Shown: positions 1-7,746, counted from the stretch's first letter. The stretch: 18,198 nt of DNA from a virus (IMGVR_UViG_2740892229_000008:1-18198); one strand, 5' to 3'. A program made the numbers and translations. The notes: generated from the sequence alone by a model not told the origin.

Positions 1-142
1 TAATCGCCTGCATCAGAGTATAAGGGGTTATGGCCACCGGACTACCAAACGGCTGCCAGCCCTCTTTCAGTTTATGTGTCAGCTTTTCCGCAAGATCTGA
101 TGGCGACGCCGCCCTGACAACATCATAGTGTTTAAATGCCAT
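1..142 (-). CDS. DUF1737-family protein, N-terminal fragment (start of a NanS-p-like esterase gene); runs off the window start
   Basis: Own translation of the reverse complement from ATG at 142: MAFKHYDVVRAASPSDLAEKLTHKLKEGWQPFGSPVAITPYTLMQAI, a close paralogue of the N-terminus of the ORF starting at 5112. The track ORF 79..282 is in another frame. Confidence 0.55.
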   Translation of the reverse strand, partial: MAFKHYDVVRAASPSDLAEKLTHKLKEGWQPFGSPVAITPYTLMQAI

Positions 143-401
143 GGTTCTTTCCACCATCTGAAAAATAATTCTTTAAAATACCTGACATGTAATACAGAAA
201 AAACACAAAACCATACCTTAAATAAAAACCTGATTATCAAGCAGATATGCATGGATAAACTACAAGACGAGATATAAACCACCCTGTATTTAAATAAACA
301 ATAAACAACATCAGAAAAATAATTCTGCTCTATGGTTTAATTCAAAAATATCATTTATACTTTTCAGAACATCACCAGCAAGGCATAAACAAGGAAAGTA
401 A

Positions 402-737
402 ATGAAGTGGATTGTGATTGATACAGTTATCCAGCCATCATGCGGAATATCTTTTTCAGTCATATGGAGTAAAATAAAATTAATAATCTGGTATCAATCG
501 GATGCTTTCTTACCTCCTGAAAGTATATTTACACTGACTCACACAGGTATCATGCTCAATAACAAAGTGCTACCTGTAACCATTTACAACATAGTACCAT
601 TCAATAAAACATTCTGGAATTTAATCAAAAACAGCCAGGAATGCCCTACAAATACAGATAACGTATTGAATGAATGCTTTAATAACCGTTGCACTCTGCA
701 AATATGTCCTTATGGGCTAAAACAACAAAATCCATAA
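402..737 (+). CDS. hypothetical protein (AT-rich cargo ORF)
   Basis: 111-aa ORF with ATG preceded by AAGGAAAG; AT-rich, no recognisable motif; lies between the tRNA cluster and the DUF1737 gene. Confidence 0.25.
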
Positions 738-756
738 GGAGTTTACTCACATCTGA

Positions 757-793
757 CAAAATCAATATAAACAGCCCCTCCGGAGAGGGGCTG
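757..793 (-). terminator. candidate intrinsic terminator (minus strand)
   Basis: Perfect 9-bp stem CAGCCCCTC/GAGGGGCTG (772-780/785-793) with 4-nt loop; on the minus strand it is followed by TTTATATTGATTTTG. Confidence 0.4.
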
Positions 794-1017
794 GAGAGTG
801 GCGCTATGTGCCATTGCATGGTGCCGGGTGCCTCCCGGTGAATTCAGTACCAGCACCTGAATCCGCGATTATCCCATATACCTACTCGCTGATTGCCCCT
901 CCGCACAGGGGGATTCACCATGCCAGTTTCTTTTAACAAACTCCCCGCAAACCAGACAACAGTCAACCGCCTGAATTGTGAAGTATTTAAAAATTTCTCC
1001 CGCTAACTGATACCCGG

Positions 1018-1104
1018 CTAACAGTCTGGCGTTTTCTTTTTCAGCAACGGGAAAGCAACAACCACCACACCCGCCACCAGCACACCGTCAGCCAGCACTG
1101 ACAT
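1018..1104 (-). CDS. small hydrophobic peptide (about 28 aa), paralogue of the peptide at 5411..5491
   Basis: Own translation MSVLADGVLVAGVVVVAFPLLKKKTPDC; amino-acid pattern is conserved with the 5411..5491 peptide although the DNA has diverged. No clear SD; start uncertain. Confidence 0.3.
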   Translation of the reverse strand: MSVLADGVLVAGVVVVAFPLLKKKTPDC

Positions 1105-1184
1105 TATCCGGCTGCTGCAATGCCATTCACAAAAACAGTAAGCAATCACTTTTTACCGTAACAGGTGATAATCCAGATATGTAT

Positions 1185-1538
1185 CTACCCCAGATGAGTA
1201 ATCCGAAGTTCATCCATACCACAGGTCCTGGCTATTCTGTTGTACTCCTGAACAAGAGCAAATAATTCTGAATTAGCAACCATGAACTCATCGCAAACCC
1301 TCTGTATAGCATCACTATTCAGAATAATAACGTCTCTTCCCGAAAGACGATCAGGAGTACAGAACAAAACTGTCAAACGGCTGAAGGCCTTTGCTCGTGC
1401 TGCATTGACTATATCAATACGCTGCCTAAGGATGAAACACCCCGACGCCTCATCAATATTCACTCTACCCACACCATATGAATGATAAATATTTAATGCT
1501 GAAAAAACCATTAGACCGTATAACAAATATTCAATCAA
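1185..1538 (-). CDS. hypothetical protein (117-aa ORF, doubtful)
   Basis: Track ORF with TTG start and no obvious RBS; overlaps a + strand 67-aa ORF; no motif recognised. Confidence 0.2.
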   Translation of the reverse strand: MIEYLLYGLMVFSALNIYHSYGVGRVNIDEASGCFILRQRIDIVNAARAKAFSRLTVLFCTPDRLSGRDVIILNSDAIQRVCDEFMVANSELFALVQEYNRIARTCGMDELRITHLG

Positions 1539-1648
1539 TACTTAACAGAACTTTTATTTTTGACAAACATATAATATTTTCAACAATATCCTGAGCCAGG
1601 TATATTTCAGTATAAGGCTCTGCCGGAAGGAATCTGGAAGAATGAATA

Positions 1649-1725
1649 TGGCGCGCTGTACTGGATTCGAACCAGTGACCGATTGCTTAGAAGGCAATTG
1701 CTCTGTCCGGCTGAGCTAACAACGC
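1649..1725 (-). tRNA. tRNA-Arg (anticodon UCU), prophage-encoded
   Basis: Minus strand GCGTTGTTAGCTCAGCCGGACAGAGCAATTGCCTTCTAAGCAATCGGTCACTGGTTCGAATCCAGTACAGCGCGCCA folds by eye as a cloverleaf: 7-bp acceptor, GCTC/GAGC D stem, ATTGC/GCAAT anticodon stem with loop CTTCTAA, TTCGAAT T-loop, CCA end. Confidence 0.85.
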
Positions 1726-1738
1726 TGAATACCGATAA

Positions 1739-1819
1739 TGGATCGCCATCGGGGACCCGCCCCCCGCACCAACAACCCTGTTATCGTGTCGTCTGCTCTT
1801 CCTGATAAGCTAATGGCGG
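1739..1819 (-). pseudogene. tRNA-like element, probably degenerate (no canonical anticodon arm found)
   Basis: Minus strand CCGCCAT-TA-GCTT...GAGC...CGGGG-GGCGGGT-CCCCG-ATGGCGA-T-CCA: acceptor pairing 6 of 7, D arm, T-arm-like hairpin and CCA present, but I could not pair an anticodon stem by eye. Confidence 0.3.
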
Positions 1820-1826
1820 TTTGTGA

Positions 1827-1902
1827 TGGTGGCCCTTGCTGGATTTGAACCAGCGACCTGGCGATTATGAGTCGCTCGCTCTCACCACTGAGCTAAAGGG
1901 CC
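1827..1902 (-). tRNA. tRNA with CAU anticodon (Met or lysidine-modified Ile2, as ileZ of Stx phages)
   Basis: Minus strand GGCCCTTTAGCTCAGTGGTGAGAGCGAGCGACTCATAATCGCCAGGTCGCTGGTTCAAATCCAGCAAGGGCCACCA; canonical cloverleaf, anticodon loop CTCATAA. Confidence 0.85.
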
Positions 1903-1941
1903 GGGAGCAGAATAATAACGATCCGTAATTAATTTCGCAAT

Positions 1942-1965
1942 AAAAAACCCGCTCAGCGGCGGGTT
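1942..1965 (-). terminator. tR'-like intrinsic terminator downstream of lambda-type Q
   Basis: 6-bp GC stem ACCCGC/GCGGGT (1947-1964), followed on the minus strand by TTTTTTA. Confidence 0.5.
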
Positions 1966-2012
1966 GTAGAAACTCTTCTAACGTCAGGCATAAAACGCCC
2001 ATCGTTATGACG

Positions 2013-2040
2013 AATTTACCACAGATTCCGGAAAAATCAA
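2013..2040 (-). promoter_or_regulatory. pR'-like late promoter
   Basis: Minus strand TTGATT (-35, 2040..2035), 16-nt spacer, TAAATT (-10, 2018..2013), beginning 6 nt after the Q stop; the -10 hexamer is the same as I recall for lambda pR'. Confidence 0.45.
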
Positions 2041-2045
2041 CCTTG

Positions 2046-2867
2046 TTACCTAGTTACCTTTTTTAACTGCCGCTCAGCCCATGCTTCTTCAATATCAAAC
2101 CGGGTCACCAGCGCATCATAAAATTTCTTAACTGTTTTTTCCCATGACGCGCGTGTTATCTGGTTTGTCACCTCGCATATAGCATTAAATGCCTCCGTTG
2201 ATGGTAGTCTTTCATAGCCACGACCACCACAACGCTGGCAGTCTCTGATAACAGGCATACCACGTTTTACCGACTCTTCACGATGAATGGCGACACCACG
2301 CCCACGGCAATCCTTACAGGCGGTGGAAACCTCACCCTTTCCGCCACACTCCGGACAGGCAACTTTTACCACCTCCCTGACTTTTTTCCATTCTTCCCAG
2401 TAAGACGGATACACACCTTTCGTACACTTTGCCCATACCGGCGGCTTACCATCCGGATACTGGACCTTGTTTGTAAAAACTATGCTTTCAATAAATTTTT
2501 CCCCATAGCAACAAGGGCACTGCTTTTTACTCGCTGCGCTGCGGGCATAATCCTCAAAAGCGTACGAAGCCATAATGCGCATCACTACCGGTTTTATTTC
2601 TGCCGGAAGTTTTCTCAACGCCGCCACACGATCGCACCGACTGAGTGCATAATCTGCCAGTAATTCTGTTGCCCGCGCCCTGTCATTCATACTGATGCCC
2701 ATTTTCCCCAGGAACGCAGAAAAACCCATCTCAGCCCGATTCTGTGTCATGCCCTGCGCGGCCATCACATCAGTGATACTCAGCGCATCTTTTGACGTTG
2801 AGGCCGATGCATCGGTCAGGCCAGGGGATTTTGGGGAGTAGTATTTCGGTAAATCTTCCAGTTTCAT
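2046..2867 (-). CDS. antitermination protein Q, lambda-Q family (273 aa)
   Basis: YSPKSP and TDVMAAQGM near the N-terminus, several CxxC pairs, C-terminal YDALV...KKVTR; resembles lambda Q as I recall it. Sits between rusA and pR'/tR'/tRNAs. Confidence 0.8.
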   Translation of the reverse strand: MKLEDLPKYYSPKSPGLTDASASTSKDALSITDVMAAQGMTQNRAEMGFSAFLGKMGISMNDRARATELLADYALSRCDRVAALRKLPAEIKPVVMRIMASYAFEDYARSAASKKQCPCCYGEKFIESIVFTNKVQYPDGKPPVWAKCTKGVYPSYWEEWKKVREVVKVACPECGGKGEVSTACKDCRGRGVAIHREESVKRGMPVIRDCQRCGGRGYERLPSTEAFNAICEVTNQITRASWEKTVKKFYDALVTRFDIEEAWAERQLKKVTR

Positions 2868-2881
2868 TTTTTGACCTGCTC

Positions 2882-3238
2882 TTAATGCATTATGGGGTAA
2901 ATCTTCACCCCCAGACGTCCACCAGATACTGGCTGACCACGAACGATATTGATTTCATCAAACTGCTCATCGTCCATTAACACTCCCGCATGCGTCAGCG
3001 CATCCAGCGGTGCTTTCAGAATGTTGTCCAGGTCGCGACGACGCTTATCCGGTGGCTCTGCAATCACCTTTATCGCCAGCCTTCCGGACAGGCTTAATTT
3101 CAGCCGCTGCTGGCGAACAATAAGCGCCACAGCCCGGCGATAACGCTTTCCCTCCTCCGAGATAAAATATGTGCTGCCACGGCGTCGCCAGTAAGTGTTC
3201 ACCGTCGGCGGGTAAGGTAAAACCAAATCTATGAGCAT
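2882..3238 (-). CDS. rusA: Holliday-junction resolvase RusA family
   Basis: LPYPPTVNTYWRRRG and PDKRRRDLDNILKAPLDALTHAGVLMDDEQ match the RusA pattern (LPWPPSNNRYYR, PDRRRRDLDN) from memory. Confidence 0.8.
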   Translation of the reverse strand: MLIDLVLPYPPTVNTYWRRRGSTYFISEEGKRYRRAVALIVRQQRLKLSLSGRLAIKVIAEPPDKRRRDLDNILKAPLDALTHAGVLMDDEQFDEINIVRGQPVSGGRLGVKIYPIMH

Positions 3239-3250
3239 CAGTCACCTCTT

Positions 3251-4300
3251 TTACCCAAGCACGCCAGTTGCAAAGGCGTGATCAAGAAAACGAAAAATTA
3301 AATCAACCTGAGAACCATGCTTTTCTTCGAACGCCAGCGGATCCGCATGAAGCTCGTTGTGATGCTCCCGACACAGCGGTAGCGTGAAAATATCGTGAGA
3401 TTTTGTCCCCATTCCGCCCTGACCATGACCAATCAGGTGATGGGGATCGTCGGCTGGCTTACCACAACACGCACACGGCTGTGTCTTCACCCAGCGTGTG
3501 TATTTCTCGTTAACCCAGCGGCGACGTTTAGGTCGTTTCATGAAAGATTCCGGAGGCTCAGGATCAACGGCAATGCTGACCACCGTCTTTTCCTGTGGTG
3601 GGTTCTGTTGCTGGTGGGCGTGAGGCAGCGGCGCAAGATTTTTTGTGCGCTGTTTCAGTATGCTGATGGCGGTCTGCTCTCCCGGTACGATGTCGCTTTC
3701 GCGGTACAAGGGGCGGATTTTTTCCGCACGTAACCCCAGAGAACGACGTAATACTGCCTCCGGAAGCGCGTCCGCCACCTGATTGCAGACCGCCCACCAG
3801 GATAATTCAGCCAGAGATAATTCACGCTCCTGCGTACCGCTTATTGCGTGACCGATGACGTCAATCATCCATGCTGACAGGTTTTGATGAGCAAGTTGCT
3901 CGAGTGATTCGGATGTCTGGTCACGCAGCTGGTTGTCGCAGTGCCAGCACAACACCATTGCGCCGGTACCATAACGGTGAATGACGGTTTCGCTGTGATG
4001 ATAATCGCCGTGTGGCCACTGGCAGGATTTAATATGGCGCAACAGCCAGTCAGACAATGCACCAGCACCACCAGCAGCACGAATCACCCGTGCGTTACTG
4101 AAAAACGGCAGCAATGTTTTGTCTTCCACTAGCGGCTGGTGAACGGCAGGAACAACCCCGGACGGCAGATTACGCATGCTTTTCGGTTCCGGCTCCACCA
4201 GTACCCGGGTATTGTGGAATACCGGCATGGATTCACGGCCCGGCTTAACGATCACCAGCCCGAGTTCCGGTACCAGAACAGGTCGAAGTAATACCCGCAC
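3251..4300 (-). CDS. DUF968-family prophage protein (YdfU-like) with C-terminal HNH-like Cys/His motif
   Basis: 349-aa ORF; C-terminal CACCGKPADDPHHLIGHGQGG...LCREHHNELH; position immediately upstream of rusA and Q as in Qin/DLP12-type prophages. True start may be an internal Met. Confidence 0.65.
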   Translation of the reverse strand: MRVLLRPVLVPELGLVIVKPGRESMPVFHNTRVLVEPEPKSMRNLPSGVVPAVHQPLVEDKTLLPFFSNARVIRAAGGAGALSDWLLRHIKSCQWPHGDYHHSETVIHRYGTGAMVLCWHCDNQLRDQTSESLEQLAHQNLSAWMIDVIGHAISGTQERELSLAELSWWAVCNQVADALPEAVLRRSLGLRAEKIRPLYRESDIVPGEQTAISILKQRTKNLAPLPHAHQQQNPPQEKTVVSIAVDPEPPESFMKRPKRRRWVNEKYTRWVKTQPCACCGKPADDPHHLIGHGQGGMGTKSHDIFTLPLCREHHNELHADPLAFEEKHGSQVDLIFRFLDHAFATGVLG

Positions 4301-4301
4301 G

Positions 4302-4580
4302 TTACCTCCAGATGCGTTGCTGGAATGTGCGGGACGGACGCGGTGGGCGCTCGGAGTAAGGAAGCCTGACGGAGATTATCCAGTGACGATAATCGAGGCT
4401 GAGGGCTTTCTTAATCTCGTATCCGTGTCTGCGGTAGCACTGAATTAGCCACTCGGCCTGTTCTTCAGTGCATGGGGGATGCTGGAACCAGTCAGATTTG
4501 AAAGTGCGGGAACGCCGCCCGTGCCTGCTGGCAAAGACGGCAGAATCATCAGAATTGTGTAATTTGGTATCGTGCGCCAT
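4302..4580 (-). CDS. hypothetical protein (about 92 aa)
   Basis: Track ORF 4302..4709 trimmed to the only Met (ATG at 4580), because the N-terminal extension would run through the terminator hairpin at 4653-4677; weak SD. Confidence 0.35.
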   Translation of the reverse strand: MAHDTKLHNSDDSAVFASRHGRRSRTFKSDWFQHPPCTEEQAEWLIQCYRRHGYEIKKALSLDYRHWIISVRLPYSERPPRPSRTFQQRIWR

Positions 4581-4652
4581 CGGTTGTCTCTGCTGGCGCA
4601 GCAGGTGCCAGTTGTTCAGGCTGGCGTGCGAATTGTAAACCAGAATGCTAGG

Positions 4653-4677
4653 AAAAAACAAAACCCGCCGAAGCGGG
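4653..4677 (-). terminator. intrinsic terminator (minus strand)
   Basis: CCCGC-cgaa-GCGGG hairpin (4664-4677) followed on the minus strand by TTTTGTTTTTT (4663..4653). Confidence 0.55.
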
Positions 4678-4790
4678 TTAAGTGCGGGTGCGTTGAGGAT
4701 GCCTGACACATCAGAGGTGGCGAGGGATTCTCCCCATAAGCGCTAACTTAAGGGTTGAACCATCTGAAGAATGCGACGCCTCGGTGCCTC

Positions 4791-4800
4791 NNNNNNNNNN
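4791..4800. other. assembly gap (10 N); no contig overlap detected
   Basis: Run of N; flanking sequences show no shared overlap, so adjacency is unverified. Confidence 0.95.
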
Positions 4801-5112
4801 AACTGTACTGCGGCGCGCCAGCTGTTTAATGCGCGGATCCGGAGCATCGTATGAATCCGGAAGCGGAAGCCCTTCACCGTAAGCCATGGCATTGGACTGC
4901 CCGGCCAGTACGATGACGTAGTACCAATCCGGCTCAGATGAAGGGCCGACCTGTGGCTCTCCTTCAATAGCCACCGCCTGCATCAGTGTGTACGGCGTAA
5001 TGGCAACCGGTCCGCCGTATGGCTGCCAGCCCTCTTTCAGTTTGTGTGTCAGCTTTTCCGCAAGGTCTGACGGCGACGCCGCCCTGACAACATCGTAATG
5101 TTTAATCGACAT
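4801..5112 (-). CDS. DUF1737 + SGNH (sialate O-acetylesterase, NanS-p-like) protein, 5' portion truncated by the gap
   Basis: MSIKHYDVVRAASPSDLAEKL... (DUF1737-like) followed by DWYYVIVLAGQSNAMAYGEGLPLP, the GQSN block typical of sialate O-acetylesterases; reading frame is lost after the N-run. Confidence 0.7.
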
Positions 5113-5198
5113 CGAATTTCTCCCGTGTAGAGGAACAGAGTTAAAAAGCCGGAAGCGGAATCAAATCACAGGATGACCATCTGCCAGTGGCAGGTCAT

Positions 5199-5225
5199 AA
5201 AAAAAAGGCTGCGCAATGCGCAGCC
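5199..5225 (-). terminator. intrinsic terminator (minus strand) upstream of the DUF1737 esterase gene
   Basis: Perfect 8-bp stem GGCTGCGC/GCGCAGCC with 3-nt loop (5207-5225), followed on the minus strand by eight T (5206..5199). Confidence 0.6.
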
Positions 5226-5410
5226 AGAACTCACAAGGAAAATGATAAAAGGAATAACACTAGTGATGTACGCATGGCGCCTCCCGCTAAGTTCTGCAAT
5301 GATCAAACAGAACTCGCTACGTGCCCTTAAAACTCGATCATTTAGCCCCTCCAAGGAGGATTCACCATGCGGTTGATTTTTTAATAAACAGTAAACAAAA
5401 AAGTCAAGAA

Positions 5411-5491
5411 TTATTCATTCTGTTCTTTCATCATCGGCCACAGCAATACCACAATGCCGCAGACCAGAGCGCCATCAGTCAGTACCAACAT
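5411..5491 (-). CDS. small hydrophobic peptide (about 26 aa), paralogue of 1018..1104
   Basis: Own translation MLVLTDGALVCGIVVLLWPMMKEQNE; pattern L-x-D-G-x-L-V-x-G-x-V-V...P...K shared with the 1018..1104 peptide despite many synonymous-type DNA differences. Start ambiguous (in-frame upstream codons are open). Confidence 0.3.
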   Translation of the reverse strand: MLVLTDGALVCGIVVLLWPMMKEQNE

Positions 5492-5654
5492 TATCCTGCT
5501 GGTGAAATCCATCATCACCATCACTAAAAGCAGGATCACAACAGCAAGCAGACACAGTTTATAAAACAATGTTCAGAAAACGCATTCAGCATGCCTAAGG
5601 TTCTATTCCTACGAATAGCCAACTTGCAACTTAAAATATTATTTATGCAGCCAA

Positions 5655-6413
5655 TTAAATTCTGGTCCTTACAATATCAACCTGAAGATTCTTATCTTGT
5701 GCTGATTGATAAATGACAAACCTTTTACTACCTGCATTGAAAGAAGTAGACAAAACCAGACAATTATCATAACGAGCAAGAACATAATACCAACCATCAT
5801 TATAATTAATCATTTCATATTCTTTCTTAAACTGTGGTTTGTAATATCCTGTCAGAAATGAAAAAAGCCAAAAATATGCCACAAAAGCAATCATCACAAT
5901 CTCAAAAAAATGTTTTTTTATAAATGGCTTATCATAGAAGCATGATACCGATAAAAATCGCCCATAAGATCTTATCGAAATTGTAACCGCCAGCGCAATC
6001 GCTGCTGACAGTAGCAAAAGAGGTACCTGAATCTTCTGTCTCAATATAGAAAACTCAATAATTGCCGGCACAAACAATAATTCCACAGCAAAATAAAGGC
6101 GAAATACATTTAGCTCTTGCATAGAATGTTTTCTTTTCACTGCGAAAAAGAATACAACACCAATACCCCAACCGATAAGAAATATAGCAATGACGATAAC
6201 TGCAAAAAATAAACTTCTGGCAACATCATCAACACCTGCACCTACAATCCACCATGGGAAGCCGTAGTAAAAAGAAGTACCCCATCCATAGAAATAAGCA
6301 CTCCCCCATCCAAGGCATCCCATGTAGGCAATAAAAAGTGAAGAACTCCTGAGCAGCGCACCATCCTTCATAACCACCCCAATACAAGATGATAACATTG
6401 GCTTACAACTCAT
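5655..6413 (-). CDS. polytopic inner-membrane protein of unknown function (cargo downstream of Q82-like/tR')
   Basis: 252-aa ORF, AT-rich; about five hydrophobic helices (e.g. LFFAVIVIAIFLIGWGIGVVFFFAV) plus a 60-aa hydrophilic C-terminal domain; likely start at the Met at 6371, which is preceded by GGGGTGG. Confidence 0.5.
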   Translation of the reverse strand: MSCKPMLSSCIGVVMKDGALLRSSSLFIAYMGCLGWGSAYFYGWGTSFYYGFPWWIVGAGVDDVARSLFFAVIVIAIFLIGWGIGVVFFFAVKRKHSMQELNVFRLYFAVELLFVPAIIEFSILRQKIQVPLLLLSAAIALAVTISIRSYGRFLSVSCFYDKPFIKKHFFEIVMIAFVAYFWLFSFLTGYYKPQFKKEYEMINYNDGWYYVLARYDNCLVLSTSFNAGSKRFVIYQSAQDKNLQVDIVRTRI

Positions 6414-6510
6414 AACAAAAGCAATTCAATGCCGTCAAGAGGTTACAGGCTAAAAAAACTCTATTACATAGCAGCCAGCATGTTTACCGTACAAGTACAA
6501 CTCAGGGCAT

Positions 6511-6536
6511 AAAAAAAACCCACTCGGCAGCGGGTT
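6511..6536 (-). terminator. tR'-like intrinsic terminator
   Basis: Minus strand ACCCGC-tgccga-GTGGGT (6 bp incl. one G-U) followed by TTTTTTTT (6518..6511). Confidence 0.6.
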
Positions 6537-6570
6537 TATACATTTTTTACAACATACCAAATTTGCATGA

Positions 6571-6599
6571 AGTATATGGCTTTTAATCCAGTTTTGCAA
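6571..6599 (-). promoter_or_regulatory. pR'-like sigma70 promoter overlapping the 3' end of the Q82-like gene
   Basis: Minus strand TTGCAA (-35, 6599..6594), 17-nt spacer, TATACT (-10, 6576..6571); predicted transcript reaches the terminator about 50 nt downstream. Confidence 0.5.
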
Positions 6600-7272
6600 T
6601 ATTTTGCTGTAAAAATGCTGCCTTTTGTTTTGAACGTGTTCTCGTCACAAGCAATAAAGCATCACTATCAAGCTGTAGAAAAATGTGCTTCATTGCAACC
6701 CAGCGTTCAGTAAATGTCTCGGACCAGTTTTTTGTTGTCACTCCCACCAATGATGCCAGTGTCTGGTATTCATAGGCCTCACGCCCTGCAAGTTCGCTCT
6801 TCACATCCTGTGCAGCCAGCCAGATTAACGTCTTCAGGCGATCCAGTGTCTTACCTGCAATTTTTCTGTTACTTAACAAATCTTTAAACTCGCTCCATGC
6901 CCATTGCGTTATGGTGACCTGATGCCCCCATCGAACGCTTTCGCTGTAACACCAAAGCAACCATGCTTTCTGATGTTCATCGAGAGACAAAACCGCGCGG
7001 CGCCATGAAGAGGTTGAGAATTCAACCGGGCTGACCAAAGCAATGGATGAACCTTTTGCGTACGACTGCTTACCGGAAGTCGGCGTATTATCCAGCGTAA
7101 TCATCTTGCCAGTTACCACATCCAGAATGCGCGGCTTCTTTCGTTTGTATGTACCAGTATCAAATTGTGCATGCTCCTGCCAGGCTTCGAGCTGGCCTTT
7201 CGTTGCTCCGTTCAAGTCAGCAGTAGCTGCCATAAGTTGCTCACGAACATACTGTAAATATTGGGTATTCAT
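6583..7272 (-). CDS. putative antitermination protein Q, phage-82-like family (assignment from context and recollection)
   Basis: Track ORF 6583..7356 trimmed to the Met at 7272 (MNTQYLQYVREQL...), which is preceded by GAAAGGA. A strong promoter and short terminated transcript immediately downstream fit a Q/pR'/tR' unit. Family assignment not verifiable here. Confidence 0.45.
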   Translation of the reverse strand: MNTQYLQYVREQLMAATADLNGATKGQLEAWQEHAQFDTGTYKRKKPRILDVVTGKMITLDNTPTSGKQSYAKGSSIALVSPVEFSTSSWRRAVLSLDEHQKAWLLWCYSESVRWGHQVTITQWAWSEFKDLLSNRKIAGKTLDRLKTLIWLAAQDVKSELAGREAYEYQTLASLVGVTTKNWSETFTERWVAMKHIFLQLDSDALLLVTRTRSKQKAAFLQQNIAKLD

Positions 7273-7746
7273 GCAGTAAATCCTTTCTATATTTTGGCAT
7301 AATTCTTCAACATTCGGTAATCGTTCAAAACCGAATCGGGGAAACGACATAAGCACAGGAGCCCCCAGCGACAGCGAAGGAGTTCTGATATATAAGACTC
7401 AGACATCATTCATTCCCCGGTTCTCCAATATCTGTTTCACTCATCATCCATAACTACCTGTAATTGCCCCCCTTTTTTTGTAACAGTTCTTATATTGCTA
7501 TATAGAATAGCCATTACTAATGCATTTAAATTTAATAAAATAAAAATTATAAAAAACATAAAACACCACGCAAACACACTTAATAAAAACACCGTTACAT
7601 TAAAAGATAATAAAAACCGCAATAAAAAACGAATAAATCAATTGTCTCACGCAATTATAAAACATCATATTGATTACGCACCTTGTATTACAAACTCATG
7701 TATGTAAAATACGCGCACCATTCAAAAAAAAGGAAGACAATAACAT

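Follow-up and report, generated by a model that had tools for sequence, protein, structure and literature searches.

The viral DNA analyzed here (IMGVR_UViG_2740892229_000008:1-18198, one strand of 18,198 nucleotides, hereafter the window) contains, on its minus strand at positions 5655-6413, an open reading frame (ORF) that extends over 252 amino acids from its first ATG and lies behind a late antiterminator gene of the Q82 type. The ORF holds a protein-coding gene that resides in a mobile cassette, is dispensable for lytic growth, and belongs to the same protein family as STM1630 of Salmonella. We hold it to be an evenly balanced proposition that this is a dispensable lysogenic-conversion (moron) gene, whose product, a 238-amino-acid inner-membrane protein of the TfpB/STM1630 family, acts in the envelope of the lysogen. 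The gene and the cassette that carries it comprise the following features.

5655-6371, minus strand: probable coding sequence of an inner-membrane protein of the TfpB/STM1630 family, 238 amino acids plus stop codon (assigned from residue M15, identity to phage 434, PHROG 1521, and dN/dS)
6372-6413, minus strand: in-frame upstream extension of the maximal ORF, with ATGs at 6413 and 6398; probably 5′ leader or promoter, not coding
6374-6380, minus strand: GGGGTGG, a Shine-Dalgarno-like sequence ahead of the ATG at 6371, read from the sequence
5088-6536, minus strand: AT-rich mosaic cassette of 1.45 kb, delimited by homology boundaries and GC profile

Coding Status and Start Codon

Comparison of the gene with seven homologues from different settings yields ratios of nonsynonymous to synonymous substitution rates (dN/dS) of 0.06-0.18. 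Values in this range mark the gene as protein-coding and subject to purifying selection rather than as a chance ORF. An earlier note on this DNA had called the gene AT-rich; its GC content is 0.32-0.40, compared with 0.52-0.57 further downstream. The ATG at 6371 is the probable start codon. The residue aligned with it, M15 of the maximal ORF, is invariant in the homologue alignment and constitutes the first residue of nearly all full-length members, which are 236-238 amino acids long; the few homologues with longer N-termini carry extensions that are mutually unrelated and not conserved. It therefore seems most likely that the true start is located at this position, giving a product of 238 amino acids. 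A purine-rich GG(A/T/G)G element is retained at the Shine-Dalgarno position in aligned homologues. In the phage 434 record, the start of the gene is set at the ATG at 6398, 27 nt upstream of that at 6371, for a protein of 247 amino acids.

Identity and Distribution

The sequence is not new. Positions 5300-6700 of the window are 100% identical over 1401 bp to phage 434 (GenBank OL657226), in which the counterpart of the gene (CPT_434_68, UMO75332.1) is labelled "putative membrane protein"; it thus already has an annotation in a classical phage as well as entries in Pfam and PHROGs. The neighbors around the gene are the same in phage 434, namely a Q82-like Q, a terminator, a TciB-like gene, an esterase, and LpxR. 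The window differs from phage 434 in harboring an additional Q of family PF06530 and a tRNA gene beyond lpxR, and its sequence diverges beyond the run of Ns at 4791-4800. At least 80% of the 1.4-kb stretch is carried by 682 of 5426 complete Escherichia coli genomes, that is, about one in eight has the gene, and two phages, 434 and 2B8, are the sole carriers in a set of 50,697 phage records. A contig labelled as a metagenome-assembled genome (MAG) of Veillonella sp. (JAIITD010000172.1, locus L016) bears a 100% identical E. coli prophage cassette, and a partial, 55%-identical copy (P0069) is labelled MAG Acinetobacter sp.; both labels are likely binning errors that do not reflect a real host range.

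A Small Protein Family without Assigned Function

The earlier note had recognized no family for the product. This holds for the collections scanned with Pfam-A (in a release older than PF27470), NCBIfam, and PADLOC, where nothing rose above noise and none of the 5027 PADLOC models matched. It does not hold for PHROG 1521, which matches residues 31-252 of the maximal ORF (E = 2.1e-154), or for Pfam family PF27470, whose precomputed "TfpB" label is attached to the 100%-identical 247-amino-acid protein and to nearly every homologue listed. The gene therefore belongs to PF27470 and PHROG 1521, both families without an assigned function; the latter is classed as a PHROG of no known function. One copy, on a Shigella dysenteriae plasmid, is annotated as "TfpB protein". 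A full-text literature search on the origin of this name turned up nothing relevant; in Moraxella, tfpB is an ORF of the pilin inversion region.

Searched with a profile, 1.84 billion cluster representatives yielded only 72 matches, so the family is small; none of the 72 bears a functional name, and a second, word-index search with a diverse profile produced no further named relatives. Besides the relatives in the Enterobacteriaceae, full-length members at 11-29% identity occur in Neisseria dumasiana and N. arctica, in the Pasteurellaceae (Actinobacillus, Gallibacterium, Avibacterium, Pasteurella, Mannheimia, and Haemophilus ducreyi), and in Klebsiella electrica and Mangrovibacter, all of them annotated as hypothetical. 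The architecture of PF27470 and PHROG 1521, consisting of an aromatic- and glycine-rich N-terminal helix, four more helices, and a C-terminal β domain in about 240 amino acids, is also that of the gene product. A profile search of PDB sequences returned only noise (E>1), and no match was found in BFVD at E<=0.001. Holin and antiholin families, sought in Pfam and PHROGs, gave no match, and neither did any transporter or channel family in sequence and fold among the library and structure searches; the kind of match that the earlier note had named as counting against its view was thus looked for and not obtained.

Predicted Membrane Topology

Hydropathy analysis of the 238-amino-acid product reveals four strongly hydrophobic segments at about residues 53-77, 88-110, 114-133, and 155-174, preceded by an N-terminal helix that is moderately hydrophobic and rich in aromatic residues and glycine (LGWGSAYFYGWGTSFYYGFPWW). 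An AlphaFold model built from a diverse alignment of 51 sequences, with a predicted local distance difference test score (pLDDT) of 79 and a predicted template modelling score (pTM) of 0.73, places helices at residues 4-36, 47-79, 88-111, 116-137, and 155-181, followed by five β strands within 184-235. The "about five" transmembrane helices of the earlier note are reproduced by the four strong segments together with the N-terminal helix, and its hydrophilic C-terminal domain of some 60 amino acids corresponds to the last 64 residues, modelled as five β strands and predicted to be periplasmic. Family-mean counts of Lys and Arg amount to 1.7 at the N-terminus, 2.6 in loop 2, and 3.9 in loop 4, whereas loops 1 and 3 average 0.8 and 0.5. 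Under the positive-inside rule, such a distribution predicts a cytoplasmic N-terminus, five membrane spans, and a five-stranded β domain in the periplasm. The fold may be unlike any solved structure.

The family alignment contains no polar residue that is conserved family-wide, which makes an enzyme unlikely by inference. The conserved belt of aromatic residues and glycine, combined with the putative periplasmic β domain, suggests that the protein binds an envelope component and does not act as a catalyst.

A Mobile Cassette behind Different Antiterminators

The surroundings of the gene on both sides of Q are made up of the following features.

6583-7356, minus strand: Q82-type late antiterminator Q (Pfam PF06323, Phage_antiter_Q, E = 1.7e-91; Q82-like in the 434 annotation)
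6571-6599, minus strand: pR′-like late promoter TTGCAA-17-TATACT, overlapping the end of Q (consensus scan)
6516-6537, minus strand: tR′ intrinsic terminator, hairpin and T-run (terminator scan; terminator in the 434 annotation)
5411-5569, minus strand: gene for a DUF3927/TciB-like membrane protein of 52 amino acids (Pfam DUF3927, E = 3.4e-14; PHROG 1470)
5166-5354, minus strand: ORF of 62 amino acids, "putative membrane protein" in 434, enclosing a terminator
5207-5225, minus strand: strong intrinsic terminator with a GC-rich stem of 8 bp and T8 (terminator scan; terminator in the 434 annotation)
4801-5112, minus strand: 5′ part of a DUF1737/SASA carbohydrate esterase gene (Pfam DUF1737; a SASA esterase of 616 amino acids in 434), cut by the N-run at 4791-4800
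7747-8706, plus strand: LpxR lipid A 3′-O-deacylase moron on the far side of Q (Pfam LpxR, E = 6.8e-40; 434 annotation)

The gene is, as the earlier note had stated, the first to follow Q, the pR′-like promoter, and tR′, whereas its placement before the DUF1737 esterase needs amending, two small ORFs being interposed. The coding status of one of these, the 62-amino-acid ORF, is doubtful because a terminator lies inside it. The pR′-like site directly after Q occupies the place where the late promoter of a lambdoid phage would be expected. In Shiga toxin (Stx) phages, the slot directly behind Q and tR′ is the one in which stx is carried. On the other side of Q, lpxR constitutes a second AT-rich moron in the window.

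The cassette contains tR′, the gene, the DUF3927/TciB-like gene, and the strong terminator. Its boundaries, and the types of Q associated with it, were derived from related viral and genome loci fetched for comparison. Homology to the window begins exactly at 6536, in the stem of tR′, in 48 loci, and ends at 5088, 24 nt inside the esterase gene, in 36 loci. The Q upstream of the cassette is lambda-type in 35 loci and Q82-type in 31, and a 46%-identical copy in Yersinia sits after a third Q family, PF06530. These shared boundaries and differing Q types identify the cassette as a discrete mosaic module that has come to lie behind different antiterminators. Nearly all prophage copies have the DUF3927 gene next to them; the context scan did not detect it beside the divergent non-phage homologues.

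The segment that is replaced in the clear-plaque phage 434B includes the gene, and since this phage is viable without the region, the gene is dispensable for lytic growth. Patchy presence and dispensability, an atypical base composition, and a terminator of its own (hairpin and T8, 5225-5207) are all characteristic of morons. The earlier proposal of an accessory, moron-type gene in the slot behind Q and tR′ is thus borne out by a discrete cassette that occurs behind two Q families and is missing from 434B. With other lambdoid morons of the late operon or its vicinity, such as stx in Stx phages and bor and lom in lambda, the gene shares its status as optional cargo, its atypical composition, and the combination of a promoter-like site with a terminator; late read-through would likewise be expected, and expression in the lysogen is possible. 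In contrast to stx, bor, and lom, to which it has no sequence or fold relation, its product is a polytopic inner-membrane protein and neither a secreted toxin nor an outer-membrane protein.

Several observations concern the small neighbor and its surroundings. The DUF3927/TciB-like gene begins with TTG, and the 85-nt spacer separating it from the gene contains an imperfect hairpin (GGCTATTCGTAGGAATAGAACC) that lacks a T-run; an Rfam scan of the whole window found no RNA family within the cassette. The 52-amino-acid protein resembles TciB of phage P1 in matching DUF3927 and the "TciB-like" PHROG 1470, a likeness that does not apply to the gene itself. A tci locus as a property of phage 434 was considered and rejected, since tciA/B/C are genes of phage P1 according to the papers concerned and the label fits the DUF3927 neighbor only.

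Homologues outside Phages

Most members of the family live without a phage, which would make their function independent of one. Plasmids of enterotoxigenic E. coli (ETEC) carry a 59%-identical copy located 866 bp from eltAB in divergent orientation, amid insertion sequence (IS) elements and near the STb gene; in loci L002-L006 (2987-4134 and 8714-8929), the homologue lies between the heat-labile toxin (LT) operon eltAB and the STb gene and is framed by IS elements. An intact, 57%-identical copy is held by 106 Shigella plasmid records, including the M90T invasion plasmid pWR100 (166806-167522), and 37 E. coli plasmids in the plasmid collection also match. The Shigella and ETEC plasmid copies are full-length members of the same family at 57-59% identity. 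They differ from the phage gene in being surrounded by IS elements and toxin genes rather than by a cassette of Q and terminators, with no DUF3927 gene detected downstream.

On chromosomes, a 46%-identical Salmonella copy is found between sseJ and frmR/adhC, an order that is kept in the subspecies enterica, diarizonae, and arizonae. The copy in Citrobacter rodentium lies beside lpxR at this same frmR/adhC site, at the position held in Salmonella by sseJ. This common site in three Salmonella subspecies and C. rodentium is a mark of old chromosomal residence. The copies in H. ducreyi and Avibacterium lie amid housekeeping genes, that on a short Neisseria-type metagenome contig follows a gene for an fHbp-like lipoprotein, and that in Mangrovibacter has an EcsC-family gene on one side and a resolvase gene on the other, an integrase fragment lying some 2 kb upstream. 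None of the non-phage contexts examined showed a conserved partner gene or a pilin gene. All copies that were checked exceed the DNA around them in AT content.

The Salmonella Orthologue STM1630

The Salmonella orthologue is STM1630 (SL1560), an AT-rich gene of 717 bp located between sseJ and steB, whose product, a putative membrane protein of 238 amino acids, is 46% identical to that of the phage gene. This identification is confirmed by the published STM1630 deletion primer, which encodes NSSMLLAYLGGLGWG. STM1630 shares family and length with the phage gene, and published experiments were found for no other member; it differs in being chromosomal, fixed at one site in three Salmonella subspecies, and equipped with its own promoter, with neither phage nor Q upstream. 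It is expressed in SPI-2-inducing medium (SPI-2, Salmonella pathogenicity island 2) and inside macrophages in strain 4/74 and is reported to hold an H-NS-binding site, which the authors suggest as the explanation for the near absence of transposon insertions in the gene (PMC6785131). Attenuation of mutants in calves and in chicks or chickens is cited, and deletion in 4/74 increased intramacrophage replication (PMC6785131). STM1630 is also listed among the genes co-regulated with SPI-2, and its deletion was hypermotile in one screen.

Promoter and Expression

Two promoter-like elements precede the gene.

6433-6438, minus strand: TTGACG hexamer named in the earlier note, conserved in E. albertii, Escherichia sp., and ETEC plasmid copies
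6389-6418, minus strand: candidate own promoter TTGTTA-18-TATCAT with a TG before the -10, of the extended -10 type (consensus scan)

The TTGACG hexamer had been put forward as the -35 element of a promoter belonging to the gene. The hexamer exists and is conserved, but no good -10 is found at 17 bp from it (6438-6433), and promoter-like sites in the region are no commoner than in shuffled sequence (4 found versus 5.5 expected; no enrichment). The 70 nt ahead of the start, both hexamers included, are kept in the ETEC plasmid copy, which has no phage promoter upstream. This conservation in a non-phage copy, combined with the fact that STM1630 has its own promoter, makes expression of the gene in the lysogen plausible. 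A working scheme would comprise two modes. Upon induction, RNA polymerase modified by Q would read through the cassette; in the lysogen, a weak promoter of its own would probably drive the gene, likely subject to silencing by H-NS, with the resulting transcript ending at the terminator at 5225-5207.

Possible Functions of the Protein

A moron product serving the lysogen would act in the cell envelope as a factor of host association or colonization fitness, to the benefit of the bacterium when it lives with an animal, and it would have no part in phage lysis, replication, or morphogenesis. Of the roles that the earlier note had suggested (toxin, exclusion, lysis modulation), none is borne out. 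Involvement in lysis or replication is unlikely in view of the relatives that stand alone on chromosomes and plasmids without a phage and of phage 434B, which manages without the gene. A protein active only after induction, such as an antiholin or a factor in lysis timing or cargo release, might nevertheless be considered, given that the gene is the first on the Q-dependent late transcript and lies upstream of the lysis cassette. However, a class II pinholin, a SAR (signal-anchor-release) endolysin, and spanins are encoded by phage 434 itself further downstream, beyond the 616-amino-acid esterase, and the absence of holin or antiholin family matches, the viability of 434B, and the predominance of family members outside phages render such a late function very unlikely. 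Two specific candidates were rejected: a holin, since no Pfam or PHROG holin match was obtained and 434 encodes a separate class II pinholin beside the SAR endolysin, and a transporter, since neither sequence nor fold matched a transporter family in the library and structure searches.

Lysogen-expressed accessory genes are common at this position in lambdoid phages, and a polytopic membrane protein with a predicted periplasmic domain, encoded by a prophage moron of mobile and patchy distribution, could serve in superinfection exclusion, blocking DNA entry at the inner membrane of the lysogen or triggering abortive infection by competing phages. This appears rather improbable in view of the lack of any match among the PADLOC models, the orthologues fixed at one chromosomal site in three Salmonella subspecies, the co-regulation of STM1630 with SPI-2 and its expression in macrophages, and the copies that occur without phage context on Shigella and ETEC virulence plasmids and as stand-alone genes in Pasteurellaceae and Neisseria. 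Cooperation with the neighboring lipid A deacylase, for example by controlling the remodelling of lipopolysaccharide (LPS) and lipid A from the inner membrane, is suggested by the arrangement in 434 and 31 related loci, where lpxR and the gene flank Q, by the divergent C. rodentium homologues only 178 bp apart, and by the fact that the lpxR of enterohaemorrhagic E. coli (EHEC) is itself a virulence-regulated moron. The association does not hold throughout, however: in 35 prophage loci, an identical gene follows a Q of the lambda type, and no lpxR turned up there in the context scan; lpxR is missing from the vicinity of the copies in Yersinia, ETEC, Shigella, Salmonella, and H. ducreyi; the divergent lpxR homologue of C. 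rodentium is split into two ORFs (L015, 3863-4823); and the family displays no enzyme-like residue pattern. A partnership with LpxR is therefore unlikely. Finally, the label "TfpB" on the homologues and the annotation of the Shigella plasmid copy raise the prospect of a type IV pilus accessory protein akin to the TfpY/FimB-like proteins encoded beside pilin genes. TfpY, TfpX, and TfpZ resemble the gene product in size (235-245 amino acids for TfpY-like proteins), inner-membrane anchoring, and a periplasmic C-terminal domain (PMC11841053). Compared by description, they differ in having three helices and a much larger, α/β periplasmic part, as opposed to five helices and a domain of 64 residues, and in always lying beside a pilin gene (PMC11841053), whereas no pilin or pilus-assembly gene adjoins a homologue in the contexts examined. 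A role in pilus function thus has the least claim of the alternatives and is highly improbable.

Several points also weigh against a lysogenic-conversion gene for an envelope protein. For the copy in 434 or E. coli, neither experiments nor transcript or protein evidence were found; its own promoter is a match to consensus only; and the fold and family matches provide no mechanistic handle. The association with virulence loci may simply reflect common hot spots of horizontal transfer. STM1630 is absent from S. Typhi, and in ST313 its expression is abolished by single-nucleotide polymorphisms (SNPs) that inactivate the -10 element of its promoter (PMC6785131). A follow-up study that re-made the STM1630 deletion in cassette-free form suggests polarity as the source of some of the effects seen in screens. 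The infection phenotypes, carried over by analogy from an orthologue of 46% identity, are modest and partly inconsistent, and they include no growth phenotype.

Other Features of the Window

The window harbors three Q genes of three Pfam families (PF03589, PF06323, and PF06530) as well as an N-terminal fragment of a lambda-type Q; the Q-type coordinates are 2046-2867, 6583-7356, 9485-9973, and 8832-8981, all on the minus strand. The three families and the fragment point to nested replacement of late-control modules. One tRNA-Arg(TCT) and two tRNA-Met(CAT)-type genes at 1649-1725, 1827-1902, and 9096-9171 (all minus strand) lie a short way downstream of the Q genes of PF03589 and PF06530, an arrangement reminiscent of the tRNA cluster preceding stx in Stx phages. 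A full-length Rfam match to the small RNA STnc100 (132 bits) is located at 763-952 on the minus strand, downstream of the first Q/tRNA unit, and an ORF of 590 amino acids without a Pfam match occupies 12509-14281 on the plus strand, opposite to the early genes. Runs of ten Ns are located at 4791-4800, where the esterase gene is cut, and at 8921, 10134, 15270, and 17541. Among complete E. coli genomes, none joins window positions 1-4790 to 4802 onward, and the best match spans 4802-18193 only; the left 4.8 kb (DUF968, RusA, Q, and tRNAs) may therefore stem from a different prophage segment or an assembly join.

Implications for the TfpB/STM1630 Family

Viewed as sequence, the gene is unremarkable and already on record, being annotated as a hypothetical membrane protein. 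The literature searched yielded no work that unites the gene of phage 434, STM1630, the copies on Shigella and ETEC plasmids, and the homologues in mucosal pathogens in a single family. In Shigella, ETEC, Salmonella, and Citrobacter, full-length relatives are found at loci that are hallmarks of virulence, and for the one in Salmonella both expression and phenotypes related to infection have been described. Phage 434 lends itself to laboratory work, and the identical gene that it carries offers an easy system in which to address the function of the family. We tentatively propose, while leaning against it on balance, that the TfpB/STM1630 family constitutes an inner-membrane factor that spreads horizontally, has a fold unlike solved structures, and was recruited time and again by enteric and mucosal pathogens to signature virulence loci; its common function in the envelope would tune colonization versus invasive growth. 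If this is true, recruitment would have taken place at the late "stx slot" of prophages, on the invasion plasmid of Shigella, on the plasmid that carries the LT toxin, and, within the SPI-2 regulon, at the sseJ locus.

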